Shown one piece after another: positions 5,913 to 19,987 of a stretch of 64,000 nucleotides of DNA. A program made the translations under genes and the position numbers. This DNA comes from an uncultured delta proteobacterium. Lineage in GTDB: Bacteria > Desulfobacterota > Binatia > DP-6. Every line of letters starts with the position of its first letter. Within the stretch, counting starts at the first letter, position 1. The notes below the pieces were generated by a model. That model was not told the DNA's origin. It was given only the letters and a program-made list of their open reading frames with translations, and made no database searches. The DNA lies in contig CAWESA010000011.1 in the NCBI GenBank assembly GCA_963811605.1, forward strand, positions 159,698 to 223,697. The letters are read 5' to 3'.

Positions 5913-7517
5913 GTGACCGGCGGCCACCCCGACCCGTCCCTGGCAGCCCATCTCGCGCGCATCACGGCCTATAGCACCGGGACCGGGCTGGTGGATCCCC
6001 GGCTCGATCGAGCCGACCTGCGACGGGCTCTGGCCGCCTTCGTCACGCTCCGCGCCCCGGCCCTGCTGGATCGGTGGACCGCCGACCTCGGCTGTGGCCT
6101 CGGCCTGCCCGCGCACGAGTGGCCGCGCGTGAAGGCCGACCAGGAGGCCGCCCTCGTGCGCTGGGCCCGCCACGTGGCCGATCCGACCAACCTCGAGACC
6201 TACCTCTTTCTCCGCAGTCACACGCGGCGCGGCTTCATCGCCCAGTTTCCGGCATCGCGGTTTCTGGCCTCGCAGATGCGCTTCGTGCAGCTGCTCGCCG
6301 AGGACCTGCAGCGCGAATACGCGCACGACCCGGCCCGGGCGCGCGCCCTGACGGCGCTGCTGGAGCAGGAATTCGCCATCCGCATCCTCCACATCACCGA
6401 CTTCTTCGTCGAGGCGCGCGAGGATCTGCTGCTCGAGCAGGAGGCCAGCTACCGCCGGGCGATCGACCATGCGCCGGCGTGCATCTTCATGGCCGATGCG
6501 GCCGATGGACGCATCTTCACCGCCAACCAGGTGGCGGAACGCATGCTCGGCTTCCCCCACGCCGCGCTGGAGGGACGGCTGGTCGCGGAGCTGCACCCGC
6601 CCCCGGAGCGCGTCCGGGTCGCCACGCTGCTACGGACCGCGCAGGATCAGGGCCACGCGAGTCGGGACGATCTCCACCTGCTGACGCGCACGGGCCAACC
6701 GGTGCCGGTCTTCATCACCGCCGGCTTCATCGAGTACGGCGACCGGCACTGGCACCAGCTGATGTACGTCGACATCTCGGACCGCAAGCGCCTCGAAAGC
6801 CAGCTCATCCAGTCGGAGAAGCTGGCGGCCATCGGACAGCTCGCGGCAGGCATCGCGCACGAGCTGCGCAACCCGCTCGCGATCGTGATGAACGCGCTCT
6901 ACGACGTGCGCCAGGTGCTGGGCGCGGCGCCGCCGGAGGTCCTGGAAGACCTCCACATCGCGGAGGAAGAGATCAGCCGAGCCCAGGCGATCATCAAGAA
7001 CCTGCTGGAGTTCTCCCGCGAGTCGGGCGCGGACGTCGAGCACGTCGACGTCAACGACCTGGTCAGCCGGACCGTCCAGCTGATGCAGAAGTATCTCCAG
7101 AACGCCGGCGTCCGCGTCACGGCCGACCTGGGCGAGATCCCGGCCTGCGCCGTGAACCCGAACGCCATGCGCCAGATCCTCCTCAACCTGATCACCAACG
7201 CCGTCCAGGCGATGCCGAAGGGCGGCGAGCTCTTCGTGCGCACGGGGCGCGCCAACGGCGAGCGCGTTCTCCTCGAGGTCCGCGACACCGGCGTCGGCAT
7301 TCCGGCGGCCCACCTGCACGACATCTTCAACCCGTTCTACACCACGAAGGCGCCCGGCCAGGGCACCGGCCTCGGCCTCTCGGTGGTCCACTCGATCCTG
7401 CAGCGCTACCGCGGCGAGATCCGGGTGACCAGCGAGCTCGGCACCGGGACCACCTTCACCATCGAGTTACCCTGCCCCTGTCACGACGAGGCCGGGGGAG
7501 ACCTCACCACGACCTGA
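5913..7517 (+). CDS. PAS-domain sensor histidine kinase
   Basis: PAS region (AIDHAPACIFMADAADGRIFTANQVAERMLGF). HisKA H-box SEKLAAIGQLAAGIAHELRNPL. HATPase_c motifs (ILLNLITNAVQAM, RDTGVGI, GTGLGLSVV). Confidence 0.85.
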   Translation: MTGGHPDPSLAAHLARITAYSTGTGLVDPRLDRADLRRALAAFVTLRAPALLDRWTADLGCGLGLPAHEWPRVKADQEAALVRWARHVADPTNLETYLFLRSHTRRGFIAQFPASRFLASQMRFVQLLAEDLQREYAHDPARARALTALLEQEFAIRILHITDFFVEAREDLLLEQEASYRRAIDHAPACIFMADAADGRIFTANQVAERMLGFPHAALEGRLVAELHPPPERVRVATLLRTAQDQGHASRDDLHLLTRTGQPVPVFITAGFIEYGDRHWHQLMYVDISDRKRLESQLIQSEKLAAIGQLAAGIAHELRNPLAIVMNALYDVRQVLGAAPPEVLEDLHIAEEEISRAQAIIKNLLEFSRESGADVEHVDVNDLVSRTVQLMQKYLQNAGVRVTADLGEIPACAVNPNAMRQILLNLITNAVQAMPKGGELFVRTGRANGERVLLEVRDTGVGIPAAHLHDIFNPFYTTKAPGQGTGLGLSVVHSILQRYRGEIRVTSELGTGTTFTIELPCPCHDEAGGDLTTT

Positions 7518-7523
7518 CCCACG

Positions 7524-8873
7524 ATGCCGGCGCGCATCCTGCTCGTCGAGGACGAGCTCAACATGGCTCGCACGCTGGCCAAGAACCTGGAGCGCGCGGG
7601 GTACGACGTGGAGCATGCGCCGCACGGCGAGGCGGCGCTCGCCCGTCTCGGCAGCGTCACCTTCGACGTGGTGCTGACCGATCTCAAGATGCCCGTGATG
7701 GACGGCATGGATCTGCTGCGGGCGATGCACGAGCGCGAGATCGGCGCCGCGGCGGTGGTGCTCACGGGCTACGGCACCATCGAGTCGGCGGTGGAGGCGA
7801 TGAAGCTCGGCGCCGCCGACTACCTGATCAAGGATGCGCGGCCGCAGGAGATCCTGTTGACGCTCGAGCGGGTCCTCCGCCTGTCGTCGCTCAAGCGCGA
7901 GAACGAGCGCCTGCGGCGCGAGATCGGACGCCTGCGGGGCTTCGGCGAGCTGATCGGCGAGAGCGGCAGCATGCAGGGCGTCTATCGCCTGATCGACGCC
8001 GTCAGCCAGAACAAGAGCACCGTGCTGCTCACCGGGGAGAGCGGCACCGGGAAGGAGCTGGTGGCGCGGACGATCCATCAGCGCGGCATCCTGCGCGACG
8101 CGCCCTTCGTCGCGATCAACTGCGCGGGGCTCTCGGAGACGCTCCTCGACAGCCAGCTCTTCGGCCACCGTCGCGGCGCGTTCACCGGCGCCGTCGCCGA
8201 TCACGACGGCGTCTTCCGCGCCGCCACCGGCGGCACGCTGCTGCTCGACGAGGTGGCCGAGGTGCCGCTCGGCCTGCAGGCGAAGTTCCTGCGCGCCATC
8301 CAGGAGCGCGAGGTGACGCCGCTCGGTTCCAGCCGTCCGGTCGCCGTCGACGTCCGCCTGATCGCGGCCACCAACCGCGATCTCGAAGCCGAGGTCCGCG
8401 ACGGCCGCTTCCGCGCCGACCTGTTCTACCGTCTCAACGTCGTGCACATCGAGCTGCCGTCGCTGCGCGCCCGGCGCGACGACATTCCCCCGCTCGTGGA
8501 CCACTTCCTGGCACGCTACTCGGAGCAGTACCAGGTCGGGCCCAAGCGCCTGGCACCCGACGCCCTCGCCGCCCTGGTGGCCTTCGACTGGCCCGGCAAC
8601 ATCCGCCAGCTCCAGAACGCCATCGAGCGCGCCTTCGCCCTGTCGGCGGCGGACGTGGTGACGCTCGACGATCTCCCGCCGGCCATCCGCGGTGTCACGG
8701 CGGCGACGCCGGCGCCGGCGGCGACCGACACCGTCCTGCGCCTCGCCGATGCGGAGCGCACGCTCATCGAGGCCGCCCTCCGGAAGTCCGGCGGCAACAA
8801 GAACGAGGCGGCGCGGCTGCTCGGGATCGATCGCCAGCGGCTCTACCGCAAGATCGAGAAGTACCGTCTGTGA
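7524..8873 (+). CDS. sigma-54-dependent response regulator (NtrC family; REC + AAA+ sigma54-activator + Fis HTH)
   Basis: REC domain (ILLVEDELNMA...VLTDLKMPVMDG). Walker A GESGTGKE. GAFTGA motif. ESGTGKELVARTIH. C-terminal Fis-type HTH (NKNEAARLLGIDRQRLYRKI). Confidence 0.9.
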   Translation: MPARILLVEDELNMARTLAKNLERAGYDVEHAPHGEAALARLGSVTFDVVLTDLKMPVMDGMDLLRAMHEREIGAAAVVLTGYGTIESAVEAMKLGAADYLIKDARPQEILLTLERVLRLSSLKRENERLRREIGRLRGFGELIGESGSMQGVYRLIDAVSQNKSTVLLTGESGTGKELVARTIHQRGILRDAPFVAINCAGLSETLLDSQLFGHRRGAFTGAVADHDGVFRAATGGTLLLDEVAEVPLGLQAKFLRAIQEREVTPLGSSRPVAVDVRLIAATNRDLEAEVRDGRFRADLFYRLNVVHIELPSLRARRDDIPPLVDHFLARYSEQYQVGPKRLAPDALAALVAFDWPGNIRQLQNAIERAFALSAADVVTLDDLPPAIRGVTAATPAPAATDTVLRLADAERTLIEAALRKSGGNKNEAARLLGIDRQRLYRKIEKYRL

Positions 8874-9546: not shown

Positions 9547-9746
9547 CGGGTCAGGTGCTATGGACGCGCCCGTTCGACACGGGCTGGGAGGGAGTCGATG
9601 GATGAGACGTCGCGGCTGACCGTTCAGATCGTCGATCCCGCAGGCCCGGTCAACCATCCGCACACGAAGTCGGATCCCCAGCCGGACGCGAGGTGCGTGC
9701 GCTCCTCGCGACTCGGGTGAGGGATCGGGCACGACGCGTTCCGCTC

Positions 9747-10238
9747 GTGCTCGGCCATCCGTCTCGCCTGCTCGGTCTCGCCGCGCTCGCGTTCGCACTC
9801 GCCGGCTGTGCCGGAAGCGGCTCCGACTCGGGCGGCGGTGGTGGCAACGGGGGCGGCGGGACCAACTGCAAGAATCCCCCGCCCCCGACCGTGTCCTTCG
9901 CTGGCAACATCCAGCCCATCTACAACCGCTCCTGCGCCACCTCGACGGCGTGCCACATCGGCCCCACCTCGGGGGCAGGGCTCCAGCTCCAGCAGGGCAT
10001 CGCGTACGGCGCGACGGTGAACGTGCCGTCGACGCAGCAGCCGAGGCAGCTCCTGGTGAAGCCGGGCGACCCGGACGCCAGCTATCTCCTGCGCAAGGTC
10101 GAGGGGAGCGCCGGGATCTCCGGCCTGCAGATGCCGCAGGGCTGTCCGGGCACGCCGCTGGGCGGCGCCGTCTGCCCCAGCCCGGACGAGATCACCGCCA
10201 TCCGGACCTGGATCATGGAATGCGCGCCGAACAACTGA
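9747..10238 (+). CDS. lipoprotein with a cytochrome-c-like Cys motif domain (PSCyt-like)
   Basis: With a GTG start at 9747 the lipoprotein signal is MLGHPSRLLGLAALAFALAGC, with a LAGC lipobox. A Gly-rich linker follows. The domain reads NIQPIYNRSCATSTACHIGPTSGAGLQLQQG...LLVKPGDPDASYLLRKVEG...MPQGCPG. Confidence 0.5.
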   Translation: MLGHPSRLLGLAALAFALAGCAGSGSDSGGGGGNGGGGTNCKNPPPPTVSFAGNIQPIYNRSCATSTACHIGPTSGAGLQLQQGIAYGATVNVPSTQQPRQLLVKPGDPDASYLLRKVEGSAGISGLQMPQGCPGTPLGGAVCPSPDEITAIRTWIMECAPNN

Positions 10239-11353
10239 TCTCCACCGCCGCCCTGCTGCTGGCGCTCGTGGCCACGCATGCCGCGGCCGAGCCCTACCTG
10301 GCGGTGCGGTCGGGCGCCAAGTGCAGCGACTGCCACACCAACCTCGACGGCGGCGGCAAGCGCACGGCGTTCGCCCACATCCACGCCCACGACATCCTCC
10401 ACGATCTGCGCATCCTCCCGCTCCCGAAGGGCGTCGAGAGCTTCAACGGCGAGATCAATCCCTACGTCTCCATCGGCGGCGATCTGCGCGTGCGGAGCAC
10501 GTCGACGTTCGATTCCGCCATCGACTCCGAGGGTCGCGTGCCCATGAACAGGGCCTTCCGGAGCCACTTCGCCTCCGAGGAGCTCGACGTCCAGGAGGCG
10601 CTCGGCTACATCCAGGTCGACCTCTGGCCCGACGTCCTCTCGCTGTACGGCGACTTCAACGCCGCCGGCGGCGGAGTCACCGCGCGCGAGACGTTCGCGC
10701 TGCTCAAGCTTCCCTGGGATACCTTCGTCAAGGGCGGCCGCTTCTTCCCGCCCTTCGGGCTCCGCATCTACGAGGATGCAGCCTACATCCGCACCGACAC
10801 CGGGTTCACGTTCCAGAATCCCGACGAGGGCATCGAGTTCGGGGCCATGCCGGGGCCGTTCTACATCGCCGCCTCGGTGACCAACGGCGCCGGCGGCGAT
10901 CGCGACGTGCTGACCTCGCTCAATGCCTACGGCATGTTCGAGGACGTTCCCGTGGTCCGGAACGTCCTCGTCGGCGCCTCGGTCGCGCGCCAGTCGAACA
11001 AGCGCACGGTGTCGGCGTTCTACGCCGGCGCGAACCTCTGGAAGTTCACCTATCTCGGCGAGTTCGACGTCTACGACGACCGCACCGTGCTGCCGCCCGA
11101 CACCGGCAGGGACCACTTCGCCTCCTACGCCGAGGTCAACCTCCTCCTCTTCGACTGGCTCAACCTGCGCGGCACGTTCGACTTCCTCAGGGTGTCGGGC
11201 AACCGCAACACGACGCGCTACACGATCGGCACCGAGCCGTTCATCGACCGGTTCTTCCAGCCCCGCCTCTACTACGTCATCAACAACGGGCCCGGGAACG
11301 AGCCGCAGCTCAACACGACGGCGATCGTGTTCGAGCTGCACTTCTTCTTCTAG
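10220..11353 (+). CDS. outer-membrane beta-barrel protein
   Basis: Starts MRAEQLISTAALLLALVATHAAA (signal peptide). Alternating amphipathic beta-strand pattern. C-terminal ...TTAIVFELHFFF (terminal Phe) is typical of OMPs. It overlaps the upstream lipoprotein gene by 19 nt, which suggests an operon. Confidence 0.5.
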   Translation: MRAEQLISTAALLLALVATHAAAEPYLAVRSGAKCSDCHTNLDGGGKRTAFAHIHAHDILHDLRILPLPKGVESFNGEINPYVSIGGDLRVRSTSTFDSAIDSEGRVPMNRAFRSHFASEELDVQEALGYIQVDLWPDVLSLYGDFNAAGGGVTARETFALLKLPWDTFVKGGRFFPPFGLRIYEDAAYIRTDTGFTFQNPDEGIEFGAMPGPFYIAASVTNGAGGDRDVLTSLNAYGMFEDVPVVRNVLVGASVARQSNKRTVSAFYAGANLWKFTYLGEFDVYDDRTVLPPDTGRDHFASYAEVNLLLFDWLNLRGTFDFLRVSGNRNTTRYTIGTEPFIDRFFQPRLYYVINNGPGNEPQLNTTAIVFELHFFF

Positions 11354-11355
11354 CG

Positions 11356-11709
11356 CTACTTCACGTCCTCGACGATCAAGCCGTTCACACCGCCCTGGGT
11401 CACCTTCTTCCCCTCCACCGTGATCGTCTTGGCGGCCGCCTCGAGCGCCGTCGCGTAGGCCTTCGGGTTCTCGTGATCCTCGAGCAGGAGAAATACCTGG
11501 CTGTCGTCGGTGAGGATGCCCATGGGCAGCCCCTTCTTGGCGCACGTCTCGGCGCACTTCTTGTGGCTCGGACCCTTGCTCGTCTCGGGGTGGTGCAGGT
11601 AGCAGGACATGTCGATCACTTCGCCGGTGACGCTGTCATCGGCTCGCGCCGTCACGATACCGCCCGCAAGCAGCGCCGCGGCCACGATCGTCGTTCGCAT
11701 CGCTCGCAT
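11356..11709 (-). CDS. small secreted protein, possible metal-binding (hypothetical)
   Basis: Signal peptide MRAMRTTIVAAALLAGGIVTARA. Cys/His cluster MSCYLHHPETSKGPSHKKCAETCAKKG. Protein-like composition otherwise. Confidence 0.4.
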   Translation of the reverse strand: MRAMRTTIVAAALLAGGIVTARADDSVTGEVIDMSCYLHHPETSKGPSHKKCAETCAKKGLPMGILTDDSQVFLLLEDHENPKAYATALEAAAKTITVEGKKVTQGGVNGLIVEDVK

Positions 11710-11735
11710 TTCGTCTTCCTCCTGACCTCTCCCGC

Positions 11736-12077
11736 CTAACGGCGGCCTCCCTTGGAGTCAACTTCGTGCTCCGGCACCAGGTCGGGGGCGTCGAGCGCCG
11801 GCGTGAACACCACCAGGGTCACGGCCGGCTCCGGGCCACGGCGGGCGAACCAGTGCACCCGATCGCGTGCCACCAGCATCGCGTCGCCGGGTCGGAGCTT
11901 GATCACCGAGCCGTCGAGCGTGAGCACCCCCTCCCCACGCAGCAGTGCTGGCGGTGGCGGTGCGTCCAGCCCCCCGGGCACGGCCCTGACCACCCGGGGC
12001 TCTGCCGGACGCATACAGGCGGCCGCGACGAGGCTCACCACGAGCGCCGCCACCCGGATCGGGATGCGCTGCGGCAT
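11736..12077 (-). CDS. secreted cupin-domain protein
   Basis: Signal peptide MPQRIPIRVAALVVSLVAAAC. Cupin-like beta pattern (GVLTLDGSVIKLRPGDAMLVARDRVHWFARRG). Confidence 0.45.
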   Translation of the reverse strand: MPQRIPIRVAALVVSLVAAACMRPAEPRVVRAVPGGLDAPPPPALLRGEGVLTLDGSVIKLRPGDAMLVARDRVHWFARRGPEPAVTLVVFTPALDAPDLVPEHEVDSKGGRR

Positions 12078-12456
12078 GAGACGTTCTGCTCTCCGGCATG
12101 GCCCCCGGCAAGGCCCCGCGACGCATCGCGACGCACGCTCGTCACACGACGATCGGCAAATTTTCAGTTGACGGCGGCGACCGACCTGCGCGAGGATGCG
12201 TTGCCATCACCGAGGGGGTACCACCAAGATGACCGGGATCGACGCCCTGTTCCTCGAACGACTCGTCATCGGCGGATTGCTGGCCGCGCTCGCAGTGTGT
12301 GTCGCATTCGGCCCCGAGCTCCGCCGCGCGCTGGCTCGCATCCGCCAACCCCGGACTGCCGACGAGCGGACCGCCATCGGCGTCGAGCCGACCGCGTCCT
12401 GACCTTCCCGCGTCCGCGAGTTTCGCCTCTGCGGCACCGCTGCTAGAGTCGCCGAC

Positions 12457-14841
12457 GTGGTGACCAGCCGCGCCCTGCCGCGCGGGGGGTGTCGCATCGC
12501 GACGACCGCGCTGATGGCGCTGGCCGCGGTGTTCGCCTGCCGCTCCGTACCTCCGCTCGCTGCCGCCCCGCCGGGAGCCACCGTGCCGCCGGTCGACGTG
12601 TCGCGGCTCCAGGTCCTGATGATCAACGGAGGCGGCAGCAAGAGCCAGAACTACCAATCCCATCTCCTGCACCTGCGCGGCCTGTACGACGTGCTGGAGC
12701 GCGCCGGCATTCCCGGCCCCATGATCTCGCTCTACGTCAGCGACGGGACCGATCCCGCACCGGACGTGGCCGTGCGCGAGGCCCAGCCAGAGGCGGACTT
12801 CTGGCTGCTCGAGGGTAGCCGCCTGGCGGGGCCACTGCGCACGCCCGTGGTGTACGAGAACACCGTCGTTCCCGGGGCGACGCTGTCGGCGGCGACGCGC
12901 GCCGCGCTCCAGCACTGGTTCGACACCACCGGGCGCACGATGCGTCCCGGCGACACCCTCCTGCTCTACGTGACCGATCATGGGGTGCGGAACAAGGAGG
13001 ATCCGAGCAACAACGCGATCACGTTGTGGGGCGACAACGAGCGCTTGTCGGTGAAGGACCTCACCGCCATGCTCGGGCAGCTCGACCCCGGCGTGCGCGT
13101 CGTCGCTCTCATGTCGCAGTGCTACTCGGGAGGCTTCGCGGAGCTCGCCCGTGTCCGCTCGACGGGCGCCCTGCCGGACGGCTCGACCTGCGGATACTTC
13201 TCGTCGACCCCCGATCGCCCCGCCTACGGCTGCTATCCGGAGAACCGCGGCCGCGACAACGTCGGGCACTCCTTCCACTTCATCGAGGCGATCGCCGAGG
13301 GTGGAGAGTTCCTCCGCGCGCATGAGGAGGTCCTGGTGCGCGACGCCAGCCCCGACGTCCCGCTGCGCACCTCCGACGTATTCCTCGGCCACCTCCTGCG
13401 CCGCGCCGCCGACTCGGCGAAGCAGGATCCGAGCGCCTTCGCCGATCGCTTCCTGCGTGCCGCCCGGGCCGATCCGGCATCGTTCGAGCCCGAGCTGCGC
13501 CTGCTCGATCGCATCGGACAGGCGTATGGATTCGCCGGCCCGCGGTCGCTGCACGAGCTCGATCAGCAAGCCGGTCGCGTGCCCGACCTGGCGGCGCAGC
13601 TGCGCACTCAGCACGCCGCGTGGGAGGCGGCCCTCGATTCCGCCGCCCGGGCCAATCTCGACCGCTTCCTCGAGCGCGAGCCGAGCTGGAAGACGCGCAC
13701 CGACGAGCAGACGCTGCGCAGCCTCACGCCGGCGGCCGCACGCACGCTGACCGGCGAGCTGCTGCGCGACCTCGGACCGTCGACCCGCGCCGATGCGAGC
13801 GTCGAGCACCGCCTGGAGGTGCTGCGATCGCGCACCGAGGAGTCCGGCGAGGTGGCCTATCGCATGGATGTCCGCGACGGCGTCCGGCTCCGGCTCCAGG
13901 CCCTCCTCACGACCGTCGCCGGGCGCGCCTATCTCGCCGAGCGCGGCACCCCGGAGGAACGCGCCGCCTACGAGGCCCTGCGCCGCTGCGAGGCGTTCGC
14001 GATCTCCCCCGTGCCGTTGCCACCGGAGCTGCAGCTGTCGCGTCCCGAGGCGTTTCCTGCCTTCGATGCCGATCTCGCGGCGGTCGCGCGCGTCACGCCC
14101 GGGTGGATGGGCATTCAATTTCGCCAGGCGTCGGACTCCGCACGCGCCGCCGCCGGCCTGTCGCCCGGCGCGGCGAGCGTCCTGTCGGTGTACGACGGCT
14201 CGCCCGCACGCCGGGCCGGCCTGCGCCCGGGCGACATCGTGCTCGGACCGCCGCATCTGCACTTCGCGGAGCGCGACCAGATCCGGGAGTGGACGATGCT
14301 GTCCGCGGTCGACGAGCCCGCCAGGTTGGACGTGCTGCGTGACGGGCGTCCGCTCGACGTCACGCTCACGCCGAAGCCGTTCCCGCAGAAGCTCCCGGCC
14401 CTCCCGGGCCCGCCCAAGGTCGGGAGCGCCGCCCCGCCGCTGCGGCTCGGCGCGTATCGCGGGACGCCGCCGCGCTCGCTCGCCACCGGCACGCCGCACC
14501 TCCTCTTCTTCTGGGCGACGTGGTGTGCCGTCTGCAAGTCCGCGCTTCCCGAGATCGTCGCCTTCGAGCACGACCGCCGAACACCGGTGGTGGCGATCAC
14601 CGACGAGGACACGAACCGGCTGGATCCGTTCTTCGCGCAGCACGTCGGCCCCTTCCCCGCCCTGGTGGCGACCGACGAGACCCGTCAGGCCTTCCTGACG
14701 TACGGCGTCAGCGGCATGCCCACCTTCGTGCTGGTCGACGGCAAGGGCATCGTCCGCGGCTACGCGACGGGCTACTCCCCGGCCAAAGGCCTCCCGCTCG
14801 ACGGCTGGCGCTGGGCCAAGGCGCCGGCGCCGAAGTCCTGA
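12457..14841 (+). CDS. secreted multidomain protein: caspase-fold peptidase (C13/legumain-like), PDZ, TlpA-like thioredoxin
   Basis: 794 aa with a signal peptide. Catalytic-dyad-like motifs LLLYVTDHGV and VVALMSQCYSGGF match the legumain/GPI8 spacing. PDZ domain (WMGIQFRQ...SVLSVYDGSPARRAGLRPGDIVLG). C-terminal redoxin domain with WATWCAVCKS (CxxC) and GMPTFVLVD. Confidence 0.75.
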   Translation: MVTSRALPRGGCRIATTALMALAAVFACRSVPPLAAAPPGATVPPVDVSRLQVLMINGGGSKSQNYQSHLLHLRGLYDVLERAGIPGPMISLYVSDGTDPAPDVAVREAQPEADFWLLEGSRLAGPLRTPVVYENTVVPGATLSAATRAALQHWFDTTGRTMRPGDTLLLYVTDHGVRNKEDPSNNAITLWGDNERLSVKDLTAMLGQLDPGVRVVALMSQCYSGGFAELARVRSTGALPDGSTCGYFSSTPDRPAYGCYPENRGRDNVGHSFHFIEAIAEGGEFLRAHEEVLVRDASPDVPLRTSDVFLGHLLRRAADSAKQDPSAFADRFLRAARADPASFEPELRLLDRIGQAYGFAGPRSLHELDQQAGRVPDLAAQLRTQHAAWEAALDSAARANLDRFLEREPSWKTRTDEQTLRSLTPAAARTLTGELLRDLGPSTRADASVEHRLEVLRSRTEESGEVAYRMDVRDGVRLRLQALLTTVAGRAYLAERGTPEERAAYEALRRCEAFAISPVPLPPELQLSRPEAFPAFDADLAAVARVTPGWMGIQFRQASDSARAAAGLSPGAASVLSVYDGSPARRAGLRPGDIVLGPPHLHFAERDQIREWTMLSAVDEPARLDVLRDGRPLDVTLTPKPFPQKLPALPGPPKVGSAAPPLRLGAYRGTPPRSLATGTPHLLFFWATWCAVCKSALPEIVAFEHDRRTPVVAITDEDTNRLDPFFAQHVGPFPALVATDETRQAFLTYGVSGMPTFVLVDGKGIVRGYATGYSPAKGLPLDGWRWAKAPAPKS

Positions 14842-14926: not shown

Positions 14927-15859
14927 TTGCCTCGAGGAGACCAGCCCGTGCCGACCGCGCTCCGCTGCCTCACCTTGGTCCTCGCCGCCGTGCTCTGCGT
15001 GGGGGCCGCCCGCGCCCACGCGGACGGCTGCGGCGACGGCGTGCTCGATGCCGGCGAGACCTGTGACGACGGCTCGGCCAACGGGGCCTTCGTCTCGTGC
15101 TGTACGGCGACCTGCGCGCTGCGCGACGCCGGGGAGATCTGCCGCGCGTCCAGCGGCGCCTGCGACGTGCCCGAGACGTGCGACGGAACATCTCCGACCT
15201 GTCCCGCGGACATCGTCCTCCCGGACGGCGACGCCGACGGCATCTGCGACCCGTTCGATTCCTGCCCCTCGACACCCGACCCGGTTCAGGCCGACGACGA
15301 CGCAGATGGACTGGGCAACGCCTGTGATCCCTGCGCCAACGTCGTCCCCACCATCGTGCGGAAGGCCGTGCTGAAGATCTCGAAGCTGTTCACCGGACCG
15401 GGAGACGATCGCCTGAAGCTGAAGCTCACCGCCGAGGCCGTCCCGGCGCAGCCCGCACTCGATCTGACGGCGCAGGGCATCCGCTTCCTGCTCGCCGACG
15501 CCCTGGGCACCGTCATCATCGACGCGCGCCTGCCCGGCGGCCAGTACACCTCCAGCGTCCGCGCCGGGTGGAAGGGCAGCGGCTCCGGATGGAGCTACGC
15601 CAACGGAGGGCAAGTCCTGCCGCTCATCCAGGGCATCACGAAGGCCTCGGTCAAGGGACGCGCGTCCCGCCCGGGCACGTTCACCATCGCCGTGGTCGGC
15701 AAGAAGGGCAGCTACGGGGTCGTTCCCGGTGGCTTGCCGCTGTTCGCAACCGTGGTGCTGGACCCGCCCGTGGCAACCACGGGGCAGTGCGTCGAGGTGG
15801 CATTCGCCCCTCCGTCCGGCTGCTTTCTCTCCAGCAACGGGTCGGTCATCTGCAAGTGA
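14927..15859 (+). CDS. secreted cysteine-rich repeat protein (Myxococcus-type Cys-rich repeat + TSP3-like Asp-rich repeat + C-terminal domain shared with the next gene)
   Basis: Signal peptide. Cys-rich repeat DGCGDGVLDAGETCDDGSANGAFVSCCTATC. One CRASSGACDVPETCDGTSPTCPAD unit. Acidic repeat DGDADGICDPFDSCP...DDDADGLGNACDPC (thrombospondin type-3-like). The C-terminal 190 aa are paralogous to the C-terminus of the protein encoded at 15991-18465. Confidence 0.7.
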   Translation: MPRGDQPVPTALRCLTLVLAAVLCVGAARAHADGCGDGVLDAGETCDDGSANGAFVSCCTATCALRDAGEICRASSGACDVPETCDGTSPTCPADIVLPDGDADGICDPFDSCPSTPDPVQADDDADGLGNACDPCANVVPTIVRKAVLKISKLFTGPGDDRLKLKLTAEAVPAQPALDLTAQGIRFLLADALGTVIIDARLPGGQYTSSVRAGWKGSGSGWSYANGGQVLPLIQGITKASVKGRASRPGTFTIAVVGKKGSYGVVPGGLPLFATVVLDPPVATTGQCVEVAFAPPSGCFLSSNGSVICK

Positions 15860-15990: not shown

Positions 15991-18465
15991 ATGACCGGAG
16001 CACGTCGACGCACCATCGGCACGGGAATCGCCGCACTCGCGAGCCTCGTGCTCCTGTCCGCCGGCCCGGCCCGTGCGCAGTCGATCACGGGCCTCGCCGC
16101 GGTCAAGAACGCCGGTAACAACCCGGACAACTTCCAGGACGGCCTCACCGTCAGCTACCAGCGCACCAGCACCGTCGGCGTGCTGTCGAACAACGGCGTC
16201 GTGGCGCGCGTGCGCTACCAGGAAGCCGTCGGCGTCGACGTGGGCGCGTTCTCCTCGCAGAGCAACTCGCTCGCCAGCGATTACAACGTCAACTTCTCCG
16301 TCACGGCTCCGGGCGCCTACGACCTCAACATCACGACCAGCCTGAACGGCGCCTTCACGATCGAGGACGACGGCGACGGGCCGGGCACCGCCGACGCCAC
16401 CGGGGTCACCGGCACGCAGACGGGCGGCACGCTCGCCAGCGGCACGCTCAACCTCACCGATCCGGGTGGCCCGGTCACGTCGGGCAACGTCGGCTTCCTG
16501 CGCACGTCGGCAGCCACCATCCAGGGAACCAGCAACGGGTCGCCCATCGCGCACACGCTCCGCTTCACCTGGAGCGCGAGCTGCAGCAGCAGCAACGGCT
16601 TCGTCACCGGCGGCGACGAGTGCGCCGTGCGGCTTGGCCTGCCCATCACCTACTCGGGGCAGACGGCCGGCAACTACCCCGGCGTCGGCGGTCGCACTGC
16701 CGCCAACGACGGGCACTTCGTGACCATCTCGCTGGTGTCGCTGTGCGGCGACGGCGTGGCGCAGGGAGCGCGTGGCGAGCAGTGCGATCTCGGCGGCGGC
16801 CTCAACGGCATGCCGGGGACCTGCTGCTCCTCGAGCTGCCAGCTGGTCTCCAACGGCACGACCTGCCGGGCCGCGGCGGGTGACTGCGACCTGGCCGAGA
16901 CCTGCAACGGCTCGAGCCCGAACTGCCCGGCCGACCTCAAGAGCACCGCGCTCTGCCGTGCCGCGCCCGGGGTGTGCGACGTCGCCGAGTTCTGCAACGG
17001 CGTGAGCAACACCTGTCCGGCCGATGGCTTCGCACCGGCGAGCACCGTCTGCCGCGCCGCAGCGGGCAGCTGCGACGTGGCCGAGAACTGCACCGGCACG
17101 GGTCCGAACTGTCCCGCCGACGTCATCCGGTCGAACGGCTTCGTGTGCCGGGGCAGCGCCGGCGTGTGTGACGTCGCCGAGACCTGCAACGGCGTGAGCA
17201 CCGCCTGCCCGGCCGATGGCTTCCTCCCGTCCAGCACTTCGTGTCGCGCCGCCGCGGGCGATTGCGACGTCGCCGAGAACTGCACCGGCAGCGGGCCGGC
17301 CTGCCCGGCCGACGCCGTGGAGCCCAGCACGACCGTCTGTCGTCCCGCCAGCGGGGACTGCGACGAGGCGGAGCACTGCGACGGCGCCGGCGTCGCCTGT
17401 CCGCCGGACGCCTTCCTCGGCAGCACGAGCGGCTCGTTCGTGTGCCGGCCGTCGGCCGGCGCCTGCGACACGCAGGAAGTGTGCGACGGGTCGGGTCCGA
17501 ACTGTCCGCCGGATCTCGTCGCCGGTGCGGGGACCCCGTGCCGCGCCTCGGCGGGCGTGTGTGACCTGGCCGAGACCTGCGACGGCTCGAGCGCGGCGTG
17601 CCCGCCCGACGCCAAGAGCACCGGCGTCTGCCGGCCGGCTGCCGGTATCTGCGACGTGGCAGAAAGCTGCAACGGCGTGAGCAACACCTGCCCGGCCGAT
17701 GCCTTCGCCCCCGCCAGCACCGTGTGTCGTGCATCGACCGGCGCGTGTGACGTCGCCGAGAACTGCACCGGCTCGAGCGCATCCTGCCCGGCCGACACCG
17801 GCCTGCCCGACACCGACGGCGATACGGTGTGCGACGCCATCGACAACTGCATCTCGATCCCGAACGCGTCGCAGGCCAACAACGACAGCGACCCGCTCGG
17901 CGACGCGTGCGATCCCTGCACCAACATCGTTCCCACCGTGCAGGCCAAGGCCAAGCTCAGCATGACCAAGCTCCTGGCGCCGACGGGCGACGACAAGCTG
18001 ACCTTCTCGAGCTACTTCACCGGCGTGCCGGGCACCCCCACCGTCGATCCGATCACCAACGGCGCCCGCTTCATCGTCGTCGACTCCACCGGCGCATTCC
18101 CGGTCGACGTGACGATCCCGGGCGGCGCCTACAACACGGCCAACAAGGTCGGCTGGAAGGCCAACGGCAGCGGCACGTCCTTCACCTACAAGAACGCCGG
18201 CACCGTGGTCCCCCTGATCAACGGCATCAACAAGGTGCAGATCAAGGCCATCCCCTCGACCCCCGGGAAGTTCAAGACGTCGGTCAAGGGCAAGAACGGC
18301 ACCTATCCGGTGAACTCGGCGAACCTGCCGCTGGTCGGCACGATCGTGATCGATCCGCCGTTCGCCAGCACCGGTCAGTGCGGCGAGGCACAGTTCCCGG
18401 CCGCGCCGCCCGCCAAGCCCAGCTGCATCACCGTGGGCGCTGGCAAGACGGTCAAGTGCAAGTAG
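15991..18465 (+). CDS. large secreted cysteine-rich tandem-repeat protein (824 aa)
   Basis: Ribosome-binding site AGAGGGGGGAA. Signal peptide MTGARRRTIGTGIAALASLVLLSAGPARA. About ten tandem ~32-40 aa units with the pattern C[RP]xxxGxCDxAExCxGxxxxCPxD. A TSP3-like repeat (DTDGDTVCDAIDNC...NNDSDPLGDACDPC). The C-terminal domain is homologous to that of the 14927-15859 gene. Confidence 0.8.
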   Translation: MTGARRRTIGTGIAALASLVLLSAGPARAQSITGLAAVKNAGNNPDNFQDGLTVSYQRTSTVGVLSNNGVVARVRYQEAVGVDVGAFSSQSNSLASDYNVNFSVTAPGAYDLNITTSLNGAFTIEDDGDGPGTADATGVTGTQTGGTLASGTLNLTDPGGPVTSGNVGFLRTSAATIQGTSNGSPIAHTLRFTWSASCSSSNGFVTGGDECAVRLGLPITYSGQTAGNYPGVGGRTAANDGHFVTISLVSLCGDGVAQGARGEQCDLGGGLNGMPGTCCSSSCQLVSNGTTCRAAAGDCDLAETCNGSSPNCPADLKSTALCRAAPGVCDVAEFCNGVSNTCPADGFAPASTVCRAAAGSCDVAENCTGTGPNCPADVIRSNGFVCRGSAGVCDVAETCNGVSTACPADGFLPSSTSCRAAAGDCDVAENCTGSGPACPADAVEPSTTVCRPASGDCDEAEHCDGAGVACPPDAFLGSTSGSFVCRPSAGACDTQEVCDGSGPNCPPDLVAGAGTPCRASAGVCDLAETCDGSSAACPPDAKSTGVCRPAAGICDVAESCNGVSNTCPADAFAPASTVCRASTGACDVAENCTGSSASCPADTGLPDTDGDTVCDAIDNCISIPNASQANNDSDPLGDACDPCTNIVPTVQAKAKLSMTKLLAPTGDDKLTFSSYFTGVPGTPTVDPITNGARFIVVDSTGAFPVDVTIPGGAYNTANKVGWKANGSGTSFTYKNAGTVVPLINGINKVQIKAIPSTPGKFKTSVKGKNGTYPVNSANLPLVGTIVIDPPFASTGQCGEAQFPAAPPAKPSCITVGAGKTVKCK
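16861..17810 (+). repeat. in-frame tandem coding repeats (~100-120 nt units, ~10 copies) encoding the 4-Cys CxxxxGxCDxAExCxGxxxxCPxD module
   Basis: Repeated tgccg.gccgc...tgcgacgt.gccgagaactgcaccgg.....tgcccggccga nucleotide units are visible. The repeated peptide units are listed in the CDS entry for 15991-18465. Confidence 0.7.
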
Positions 18466-18550: not shown

Positions 18551-19139
18551 CTACTTCGAGTACTTCACCGAGCAGCCGTACGGCTTGGTCTCGGCCACCG
18601 CCACGGGCTTGCCCGCGGTGATCTCGTCGAGCGCCTCGCCGACGTAGTTGCGCGGGGAGTCGCTCGCGCCGGCGGCGTCATCGTCGATCGCGCCCTGGTA
18701 GACGACCGTGCCCGTCTTGTCGATGACGAACATGTGCGGCGTCGTCCTCGCGCCGTACGCGCCGCCCACGGCGCCCCCGCTGTCATCGAGGATCGGGTAC
18801 TTCATGGCCTGCTCGGCGTGCCAGGCGCGATCCTTGGCCGCGTCCATGTAGCTGGTGCTGTTGACCGCGAGCCACACGACGTCCTTGTCCTTGAAGCGAT
18901 CCGCGAGCGAGCTCATGGTCTTGGCGCGGTAGTGGCGCTGCACGAACGGACAGTCGGGATTCGTCCACTCGAGCACGACGATCTTGCCGCGCAGCTTCGC
19001 GAGGTCGACCTCGCGTCCGTCCTGATCCTTGGCCGTGAACTCCGGGCGCGGGCTGCCCCACGCTCACGGCCGCCCACGATGCGCCCGTCGCGGCAAGAGA
19101 CAGCGCTGCCGCCGCGAGCCACACGCTTCCTCGTGTCAT
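18551..19139 (-). pseudogene. TlpA/ResA-like thioredoxin-family (redoxin) protein with a +1 frameshift
   Basis: Frame A gives signal peptide MTRGSVWLAAAALSLAATGASWAAVSVGQPAP and then goes off-frame. Frame B continues EFTAKDQDGREVDLAKLRGKIVVLEWTNPDCPFVQRHY...HMFVIDKTGTVVYQGAIDDD. The sequence gcgcccgGagttcacggcc carries one extra base, around 19040-19050 on the plus strand. Confidence 0.6.
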
Positions 19140-19987
19140 CTAGGTCTCCTTTCCATCCAGGTCGATGGGAACGCGCAGGCCGTGGCGCGCGCCGTGCTCA
19201 TCGGTCCAGGCCACGACGCTCTCCAGCGTCGATCCCTCCGGGCGCTCGCCCGGCAGGCGCTTGGCGCGAAAGCTGAGCCGCGTCCGGGTTCCGTCGGTCT
19301 CGCTGCTCGCCGACTCGACCGTCAAGCGCCCGGTCGTCGGGTGGGAACCACTCGACGCTCGCGGGTGCCTCGCTTCCAGTCGACGGTCACGGTCACGTCG
19401 CCGACACTGCCGTCCGCCGGCACCGCGCCTCGTGCGTGAGCGTCGCGGGGCCGCCGGCGCCGGCCGCCTCGATCGGGAAGCGTGGAGCCCACTGCGTGAA
19501 GAGCGCGGGATCGGCCGCGGCCCCGTCGGCGCCGACGGTCAAGCTCCAGCGACTTCTTGCCCCGGATGCACAGGCGCTCGCACGCCAGCCAGCCGACCTC
19601 GGCGCGCAGCGCCACCGCGGTCGCGTCGGGGACCGCCGCCGGCGGGGTCACGGTCGCACGCAGGAGCACGACGTCATCGTAGCCGTAGCCGACGACTCCG
19701 CCGGGTTGCTGGAAGCGCCGCGGCACCGGCCAGGCGAGGGGACCGATGCGGTAGCCTTCCGGCGCCGTCCAGCGGACCGAGGTCGGCAGTCCGGAGTCTC
19801 CGGGGTTGAGCCAGTAGACGTGCCAGCCCGGCTGCATGCGAAGCACGACGCCGACATCGAACGGCTTCCCCGGCTCGACACGGGCCGTGCTCGCCACTGC
19901 CGTCGCCTCGACCGGCTGGACGGCCGGCGCCGCGACGGCACGCGCCGCTGCGAACGCGATGATCAATCCCCCGAACAGGCGCCGCAT
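19140..19987 (-). pseudogene. DsbD N-terminal (alpha) domain-like thiol:disulfide interchange protein, reading frame disrupted in its 3' half
   Basis: Signal peptide MRRLFGGLIIAFAAARAVAA. Hallmark PGWHVYWLNPGDSGLPTSVRWTAPEGY and the W..C....C motif (VGWLACERLCI). After about residue 150 the called frame becomes poly-Arg. Protein-like sequence continues in two other frames (LTVGADGAAADPALFTQWAPRFPIEAAG...; VTVTVDWKRG...; ...LESVVAWTDEHGARHGLRVPIDLDGKET ending at 19140). Confidence 0.5.

Follow-up and report, generated by a model that had tools for sequence, protein, structure and literature searches.

A gene at positions 12457..14841 (+ strand, like all features described below) of the window, the 64,000-nucleotide stretch of DNA analyzed here, encodes a predicted 794-aa lipoprotein in which a legumain-like peptidase is followed by a helical domain, a PDZ domain, and a thioredoxin. 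Its coordinates were verified as one ORF ending in a TGA stop codon (14839-14841). The first-pass annotation had proposed that a C13/caspase-fold peptidase, a PDZ, and a TlpA-like thioredoxin with a CxxC are combined in a single exported polypeptide; domain searches bear this out, and the identities of the three domains (C13-like, PDZ, and thioredoxin) are assigned with high confidence. Judged from the sequence record, this architecture is real and common in uncultured Binatia, though unstudied in the searchable literature.

The legumain (C13)-like cysteine peptidase domain, assigned to clan CD, spans aa 50-270 (12604..13266) and has the caspase/haemoglobinase alpha/beta fold. As in C13 peptidases, a His-Gly...Cys dyad appears to follow hydrophobic strands in the proper order, accompanied by an apparent equivalent of legumain Asn42. 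The predicted catalytic residues His175 in YVTDHG (12979..12981) and Cys222 in MSQCYSGGF (13120..13122) correspond by alignment to legumain His148 and Cys189, and they also align to the His-Gly and the catalytic Cys of GSU0716 and metacaspase-4. Similarly, hhalign places Asn65 (12649..12651) at legumain Asn42, the third catalytic residue, and His69 (12661-12663) at the S1 residue His45. The His/Cys dyad previously noticed in a legumain-like context is intact, His175 and Cys222 being invariant in 38/38 family members and in 99/99 divergent representatives, while N65 and H69 are each found in 97/99 of the latter, the remaining two being gaps. Additionally, a segment that includes the substrate-binding strand, CGYFSSTPDRPAYGC (13189..13233, from the alignment), is bounded by Cys245 and Cys259, which are kept in 98/99 and 99/99 divergent representatives, respectively; the legumain residue aligned to Cys259 is Cys219. 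Conservation across the protein is highest at Asn65, His175, and Cys222 and in the motifs around them, exceeding that of the CxxC. A pseudoenzyme reading was rejected on the grounds of conservation and recurrence.

Profile searches place the domain in the same family. The protein itself scores 21.4 bits (E = 2e-4) against Peptidase_C13 (PF01650), marginally missing the gathering cutoff of 22.8 bits, and relatives such as P0150 (32.1 bits), P0238 (30.6 bits), and P0247 (28.1 bits) exceed it. Peptidase_C13 matches are found in 38/38 family members at E <= 0.01, the best at 2e-8, which makes the similarity of the N-terminal region to the C13/caspase clan significant at the family level; the Pfam scan returned no match to Peptidase_C14 (PF00656) at E <= 1.

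The Asn/Asp specificity of legumain arises from a zwitterionic S1 pocket formed by Arg44, His45, Ser216, and Asp231 (PMC4357240). Three of these four residues are replaced here and His45 alone is kept, as H69: R44 becomes Q67, at a position that varies across the family (Q/L/R/A/H/F), S216 becomes A256, and D231 becomes H271, which is present in 97/99 divergent representatives. The zwitterionic pocket of the legumain family is absent, and, on the residues aligned to it, the label “asparaginyl endopeptidase” should not be used for this protein.

The peptidase leads into a family-specific, all-helical domain (aa 271-545; 13267..14091), which begins at His271, the place of legumain Asp231, contains the invariant Cys511 (13987-13989), and has no Pfam match, no PDB sequence match, and no fold relative. 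The C-terminal activation peptide and five-helix, death-domain-like LSAM prodomain of legumain are not found. An HtrA-like PDZ domain then occupies aa 546-640 (14092..14376), between peptidase and thioredoxin as originally read, with a Pfam PDZ_2 score of 34.0 bits against a cutoff of 27. It is found in 38/38 family members, matches the PDZ domains of AlgW, DegQ, MucD, and HtrA by Foldseek and phmmer, and carries a conserved G-I-Q-F loop (14110-14121) located where PDZ domains have their carboxylate-binding loop; W550, G552, I553, and F555 are invariant.

Beyond a linker at aa 640-655, the C-terminal aa 655-780 (14419..14796) form a thioredoxin-fold domain of the TlpA/CcmG/ResA type, with a CxxC of Cys690-Ala-Val-Cys693 (14524-14535) and Pro755 (14719-14721) in the cis-Pro position. 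Fold, CxxC, and cis-Pro loop agree with the TlpA-like thioredoxin superfamily, whose Pfam cutoffs are passed, confirming the earlier identification of a TlpA-like redoxin with an intact CxxC. This domain yields the strongest single-sequence matches of the whole protein. The middle residues of the CxxC differ among homologues (AV, GI, AP, GP, and others), a variation that sets no limit on the redox potential and hence none on the reductase role. About 70% of family clusters carry the thioredoxin as a C-terminal fusion, and about a quarter of the clusters have no thioredoxin domain at all and keep the peptidase residues. These complete natural variants, one of them 637 aa long, identify the thioredoxin as an accessory to a conserved core of C13, helical, and PDZ domains. 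Following Rosetta-stone logic, we looked for a separate redoxin gene beside thioredoxin-less forms and found none in four loci. No core position co-varies with the presence or absence of the thioredoxin, which leaves a dedicated intramolecular docking surface without support.

The N-terminus (12457..12540) is a signal peptide ending in the lipobox A-V-F-A-C, with Cys28 (12538-12540) as the predicted lipidation site. This cysteine is kept in 33/33 homologues having a full N-terminus, where the lipoboxes are canonical (LAGC, VAAC, ATGC, VVGC, and others) and are followed by a Pro/Ala-rich linker; in the lipobox here, V-F-A-C28, the Phe at position -2 is atypical. The combination of signal peptide and lipobox ([LVI][ASTVI][GAS]-C) points to a bacterial lipoprotein, most likely anchored by lipid in the cell envelope and, by its inferred topology, facing the periplasm.

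Homologues number more than 1000 in databases, the full-length ones at 51-82% identity, and the family is found in at least 217 species-level genomes, the majority labeled Binatia or bearing older names. To our knowledge, Binatia are a widespread lineage of soil and sediment without any cultured member; the fusion family is a possible marker for this lineage, and its envelope function is likely a housekeeping one. Databases list these proteins as “redoxin family protein,” “redoxin domain-containing protein,” “thiol-disulfide isomerase/thioredoxin,” or “hypothetical protein.” The redoxin-type names arise because only redoxin models pass automated cutoffs; since automated annotation names the redoxin part alone, the peptidase goes unrecognized. 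The initial impression that no such architecture had been described stands for the searchable literature, where searches for C13, PDZ, and thioredoxin in combination found nothing relevant, and fails for the sequence databases, where the architecture is abundant under redoxin names.

The gene neighborhood offers little that is conserved. Directly upstream, a gene for a 57-aa single-pass membrane peptide (12229..12402) is a possible companion within one subclade, kept at the same position in 13/86 scanned sequences (HMM, E = 1e-19 to 2e-29) and without a Pfam match. When all coding-like ORFs of >=70 aa in the fetched loci were clustered, no conserved operon partner emerged; the top cluster, a generic PAS histidine kinase, reached 24/77 loci. 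With no conserved adjoining gene, no substrate is nominated. Here and in close relatives, the neighbors include secreted proteins (18 and 54 cysteines) that bear disintegrin-like repeats, to which the first-pass annotation had tentatively tied the enzyme; synteny does not sustain this tie, since such neighbors occur in 6/77 loci, all from close relatives, and the downstream context has already changed in relatives at 55-59% identity. Redoxin and DsbD_N neighbors are likewise confined to close relatives: 4.5 kb downstream there is a DsbD_N-only gene, which is linked in 5/77 loci, and no gene for a DsbD/CcdA transmembrane electron donor occurs within about 5 kb. The neighboring redoxin gene in the window carries a frameshift. 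A sigma-54 activator gene is also located nearby; no sigma-54 promoter was detected upstream at 12078-12456, and matches across the window equal chance expectation.

Our preferred reading, to which we assign a probability of roughly 0.4 as a full mechanism, runs from PDZ capture through C13 cleavage to thioredoxin reduction in cis. A C13 core with intact Asn65, His175, and Cys222 is packed against the helical domain and followed by the HtrA-type PDZ, which would recruit the substrate by capturing an envelope or secreted protein at its C-terminus or by an exposed tail. Cleavage of the captured protein by the C13 domain would then follow, at a residue other than the Asn used by legumain; this is predicted because two invariant histidines lie at the center of the rebuilt S1 pocket, for which an acidic or small P1 residue is possible. 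Reducing power would come in cis from the thioredoxin module, electrons presumably flowing from it to its putative target; it would serve mainly to hold the catalytic thiol in, or return it to, the reduced form in an oxidizing compartment, perhaps along with the three other invariant cysteines, and opening substrate disulfides would be a second possible role. A self-reducing, redox-regulated peptidase, as first suggested, is plausible. Extending this, we can speculate, while thinking it improbable, that the family is an unrecognized class of redox-gated, legumain-fold transpeptidases or processing proteases of the bacterial envelope. In such enzymes a thiol switch would be built from C245, C259, and C511, either together with Cys222 or surrounding it; set by the fused thioredoxin, the switch would couple the maturation or anchoring of Binatia envelope proteins to redox state, and the helical domain would be autoinhibitory, like LSAM in prolegumain.

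Several other explanations were weighed against cleavage with protection of the catalytic thiol. The thioredoxin could instead act chiefly on substrates, opening disulfides so that the PDZ-tethered chain enters the C13 active site, as a reduce-and-cleave machine. The lysosome pairs the thiol reductase GILT with asparaginyl endopeptidase in an analogous manner; here both activities would reside in one polypeptide. The position of the thioredoxin straight after the substrate-binding PDZ agrees with this idea, as does the adjoining of the gene, here and in close relatives, to the cysteine-rich disintegrin-like proteins, and the thioredoxin-less, paralogue-like forms could take disulfide-free substrates. 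However, the limited occurrence of these neighbors, the change of context at 55-59% identity, and the failure of our search to find a substrate signature weigh against it, and we regard it as a tentative and somewhat unlikely alternative. By analogy with the C13 enzymes GPI8 (GPI transamidase) and the plant peptide asparaginyl ligases, the enzyme might also be a sortase-like transpeptidase or ligase instead of a hydrolase, in which the PDZ would read a C-terminal sorting signal and cleavage would be followed by transfer of the protein to an acceptor (lipid, glycan, or peptide) at the membrane that holds the enzyme's anchor. This we consider doubtful: no candidate substrate family with a common C-terminal signal and no conserved neighbors were found, the fold matches legumain better than GPI8, and the vicinity of the gene showed no homologues of the remaining subunits of the GPI transamidase.

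The redoxin-type or “hypothetical protein” names given by every source, together with the dominance of the thioredoxin in single-sequence matches, could suggest that the protein is mainly a specialized thiol-disulfide oxidoreductase, with the C13-like, helical, and PDZ domains serving as a non-catalytic substrate-binding scaffold. Such a role is very improbable, given that the catalytic residues (Asn, His, and Cys) and their motifs (99/99) are better conserved than the CxxC and that the clusters without thioredoxin retain the peptidase residues. The possibility that misassembly, a missed stop codon, or a frameshift has artificially joined two or three genes deserves mention, as the DNA probably comes from a metagenome-assembled genome and a frameshift does affect the nearby redoxin gene. 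Its probability is negligible: one uninterrupted ORF with C13, PDZ, and thioredoxin was found again in 77 of the loci taken from other assemblies, the fused architecture persists down to ~30% identity among the more than 1,000 database proteins (range 30-82%), GC3 stays uniformly high throughout the ORF (0.90), and the predicted structure of the full protein packs its domains confidently (pTM 0.87). Recurrence across assemblies thus rules out misassembly.

Cysteine peptidases are rare in the oxidizing bacterial envelope, and we know of no characterized bacterial C13-type enzyme. This family may represent one evolutionary answer to oxidation, in which a legumain-fold protease on a lipid anchor is equipped with a dedicated thioredoxin and a PDZ tether. 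With the peptidase recognized, the legumain family, which in plants supplies valued peptide ligases, gains a bacterial branch whose S1 pocket and helical domain are both new. Setting the fusion beside its naturally occurring thioredoxin-less variants also offers a ready comparison of how periplasmic thiol enzymes are protected.

Among known systems, legumain/asparaginyl endopeptidase (MEROPS C13, PF01650; human legumain PDB 4aw9) shares ~18% identity with this protein. The helical region of about 275 aa is unlike the five-helix LSAM domain; this protein is a predicted bacterial lipoprotein with PDZ and thioredoxin added, and nothing in it suggests autoactivation at acid pH. Legumain proper is a closer match than GPI8/PIG-K or the plant peptide asparaginyl ligases (OaAEP1, butelase); the S1 pocket differs from those of the latter two and, in contrast to GPI8/PIG-K, neither partner subunits nor substrates with a C-terminal signal were found. 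The bacterial caspase-like proteins and metacaspases (C14; GSU0716, PDB 3bij; metacaspase-4 and -9) are similar at the clan level only, whereas both the N-terminal N-Y-x-x-H motif and the alignment as a whole agree with C13.

With TlpA, CcmG (DsbE), and ResA the protein shares the thioredoxin fold, W-C-x-x-C, the Pro at the cis-Pro position, and a predicted envelope location, and the best sequence and fold matches of the domain are 3gl3, 1kng, ResA, and TlpA. However, it is here a C-terminal accessory domain on a peptidase, and its scores lie far under all NCBIfam equivalog and subfamily cutoffs (DsbE, 40.7 vs 123.15 bits; ResA, 36.2 vs 170; MauD, 32.6 vs 188.6; TlpA, 24.6 vs 230; StoA, 23.7 vs 210), which indicates that it is not an orthologue of cytochrome-c or copper-site maturation factors. 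HtrA/DegP/DegQ and Ctp/Prc likewise join an envelope protease to a PDZ that binds substrate C-termini, a binding mode proposed here by analogy; the PDZ most resembles HtrA PDZ1, but the protease is a caspase-fold cysteine peptidase rather than a serine protease and carries an extra thioredoxin. In E. coli, the periplasmic reductases DsbG/DsbC keep the single catalytic cysteine of L,D-transpeptidases reduced. There, a separate, general, and non-homologous reductase acts in trans, whereas here a dedicated thioredoxin would act in cis, and DsbG/DsbC can serve as a conceptual precedent for the putative protective role of the fused domain.

The gene at 12457-14841 (+) encodes a 794-aa lipoprotein that combines a legumain-like C13 peptidase, a helical domain, a PDZ domain and a thioredoxin. 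Its 794 codons run from a GTG start to a TGA stop without interruption. At ~71% GC, the window contains long spurious ORFs in all frames; the target ORF has GC1/2/3 of 0.73/0.54/0.90, a codon-position profile typical of genuine genes, and an 833-aa minus-strand ORF overlapping it fails the codon-position filter. The motifs that the first-pass annotation had quoted when proposing a peptidase, PDZ and TlpA-like thioredoxin fusion lie where expected (YVTDHG spans aa 171-176, MSQCYSGGF aa 219-227 and WATWCAVCKS aa 686-695), and all three domains proved real. Pfam places PDZ_2 at aa 550-637 and Thioredoxin_8, AhpC-TSA and Redoxin at aa 655-777, all above their curated cutoffs, and Peptidase_C13 at aa 156-262, at the edge of its cutoff (E = 2e-4; 21.4 bits, just under 22.8). 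At the family level, PF01650 is matched by all 38 aligned homologues (best E = 2e-8), and more distant relatives pass the C13 cutoff outright. A profile of the N-terminal domain aligned with the human legumain protease domain over 191 columns (92.5% probability, E = 4.9e-7), and the PDZ domain resembles those of AlgW, DegQ, MucD and HtrA.

Homologues number more than 1,000 in the databases, and the best 120 are full-length (~740-840 aa) and 51-82% identical to the target. An exhaustive HMMER search with the peptidase and helical part only as query returned 1,248 clusters (clustered at 50% identity) with E <= 1e-3, of which 227 reach E <= 1e-30. The family is present in 217 of the 185,579 genomes scanned, one per species. 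Its host organisms are uncultured: among the matches listed, 80 of 80 records are uncultured MAGs, mostly labeled Candidatus Binatia or carrying older names, including Deltaproteobacteria, Myxococcales and Thermodesulfobacteriota. Five homologue loci (L018, L026, L037, L070 and L079) come from MAG records titled Enterobacteriaceae, Klebsiella pneumoniae or Nitrosopumilus; over this high-GC, Binatia-type gene, such titles almost certainly reflect wrong taxonomy or bin contamination in the public databases. Even members that share only 30-35% identity keep the four-part layout, and some of them are extended by 100-150 aa at the N-terminus; the single-ORF form recurs in 77 of the fetched loci. 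Misassembly is thus excluded as the source of the fusion, and the chance that it is an artefact is negligible.

The legumain catalytic residues are kept in the target as N65 (N42), H175 (H148) and C222 (C189). In an alignment of 99 divergent representatives, each 600 aa or longer, N65, H69, H175, G176, S220, C222 and H271 are conserved at 97-100%. A remodeled S1 pocket accompanies this catalytic core, a feature that the first-pass annotation overlooked. According to a clan CD review, legumain Asn/Asp specificity is set by Arg44, His45, Ser216 and Asp231, of which only the His45 equivalent is retained (His69, in 97 of 99 representatives, the remaining two being gaps). Arg44 corresponds to Gln67, which varies in the family (Q/L/R/A/H/F), Ser216 to Ala256, invariant in the 38-sequence alignment, and Asp231 to His271 (97/99), where the family-specific helical domain (aa 271-545) begins. 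Ser220 occupies, in 99 of 99 representatives, the position of legumain Glu187, another residue of the S1 pocket. This remodeling rules out the name asparaginyl endopeptidase. Three extra cysteines are equally conserved: C259 (99/99), the counterpart of legumain C219 on the strand that binds substrate; C245 (98/99), in an insertion just ahead of the preceding strand; and C511 (99/99), in the helical domain. One of them could pair with Cys222 as a redox switch.

The N-terminus, also overlooked at first, is a lipoprotein signal, with a hydrophobic segment ending in A-V-F-A-C28 and followed by a Pro/Ala-rich linker. Every one of the 33 homologues whose N-terminus is complete has C28, mostly within a canonical lipobox (LAGC, VAAC, ATGC). 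Thioredoxin residues are absent from the alignment in ~27 of the 99 representatives. Four such forms (636-648 aa), checked on their contigs, are complete genes ending a few residues past the PDZ domain, and none of these four contigs has a redoxin gene beside them. Where the thioredoxin is present (~72 representatives), C690 is found in 68 and C693 in 66, with Ser replacing C693 (CxxS) in four. Presence or absence of the thioredoxin is not matched by a systematic difference at any core position. Alignment conservation and the complete thioredoxin-less genes together establish lipobox, C13, helical and PDZ domains as the conserved unit and the thioredoxin as a frequent accessory.

Upstream of the target lie a PAS histidine kinase and a sigma-54-dependent response regulator (5913-8873, +; syntenic in closer relatives), a methyltransferase, and a small conserved gene set (9693-12077) encoding a 181-aa Cys-containing lipoprotein, a ~378-aa protein without Pfam match, a 117-aa secreted Cys-containing protein and a cupin; this set accompanies the target in some 7-10 loci. 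No sigma-54 (-24/-12) promoter was found ahead of the target. Directly upstream, 12229-12402 (+) encodes a 57-aa single-pass membrane peptide (…LERLVIGGLLAALAVCVAFGPELRR…) without Pfam match, conserved at this location in 13 of 86 sequences scanned, all of one closer subclade; perhaps it is a small partner protein in the membrane, or else a co-transcribed gene. Downstream, two Cys-rich secreted proteins (14927-15859 and 15991-18465, both +) contain 18 and 54 cysteines, carry Pfam Disintegrin repeats, of which the larger has 10 stretches, and share a C-terminal domain of ~260 aa (45% identity). Such repeats are unusual in themselves in a bacterium. Beyond them, on the opposite strand, an apparently frameshifted redoxin gene (~18551-19139, -; signal peptide in the frame of ORF 18783-19139, thioredoxin-fold domain in the open frame 18554-19057) adjoins a stand-alone DsbD_N (DsbD alpha-domain-like) protein (19322-19987, -). 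The redoxin orthologue in homologue locus L001 (12884-13474) is an intact 196-aa gene, and the frameshift marks an assembly error or else a pseudogene. About 5 kb around is devoid of DsbD/CcdA transmembrane modules, so the redoxin and DsbD_N genes together resemble an orphaned thiol relay of the periplasm.

Shared gene context is lost rapidly with divergence: the whole neighborhood is common to a homologue of 67% identity, only the upstream genes to one of 59%, and nothing to one of 55%. Clustering all coding-like ORFs in the flanks of the 77 loci revealed no conserved partner: no cluster exceeds 24 loci, and the one reaching 24 consists of generic histidine kinases. Disintegrin-like proteins accompany the target in 6 of the 77 loci, and redoxin and DsbD_N in 5 each. 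The earlier suggestion that the enzyme could serve its Cys-rich neighbors reflects local synteny rather than a family trait, and the gene behaves as a stand-alone unit.

What the protein does we infer throughout. Our preferred reading (probability about 0.4) is an envelope cysteine peptidase whose substrate tails would be tethered by the PDZ domain, as in HtrA and Ctp proteases. The C13 domain would cut at a site other than Asn, dictated by the His69/His271 pocket, and the attached TlpA-like thioredoxin would keep or restore the catalytic thiol in an oxidizing compartment. DsbG and DsbC rescue periplasmic L,D-transpeptidases, a precedent for such thiol protection, and the thioredoxin-less forms agree with an auxiliary, protective role. 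That the thioredoxin instead opens substrate disulfides, making the protein a reduce-and-cleave machine, seems rather unlikely to us, and a sortase-like transpeptidase or ligase, conceivable by analogy with GPI8 and plant ligases, appears improbable. A protein acting mainly as an oxidoreductase, with the rest as a non-catalytic scaffold, is contradicted by the conservation pattern and is very hard to sustain.

Public names of the family are “redoxin family protein,” “redoxin domain-containing protein,” “thiol-disulfide isomerase/thioredoxin” and “hypothetical protein”; the finding, solid and widespread, corrects this annotation and is relevant to specialists in protease and envelope redox biology. 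The searchable literature yielded no published description of the C13, helical, PDZ and thioredoxin architecture; its parts are known, except the helical domain, and their combination is undescribed. The thioredoxin domain falls in the TlpA-like superfamily but is no orthologue of CcmG, ResA, TlpA, MauD or StoA, its scores all lying far below the NCBIfam cutoffs. The target has the predicted fold and catalytic residues of clan CD C13-type peptidases but lacks the S1 pocket and LSAM prodomain that define legumain. Within the legumain family, the target and its homologues form a divergent bacterial branch.
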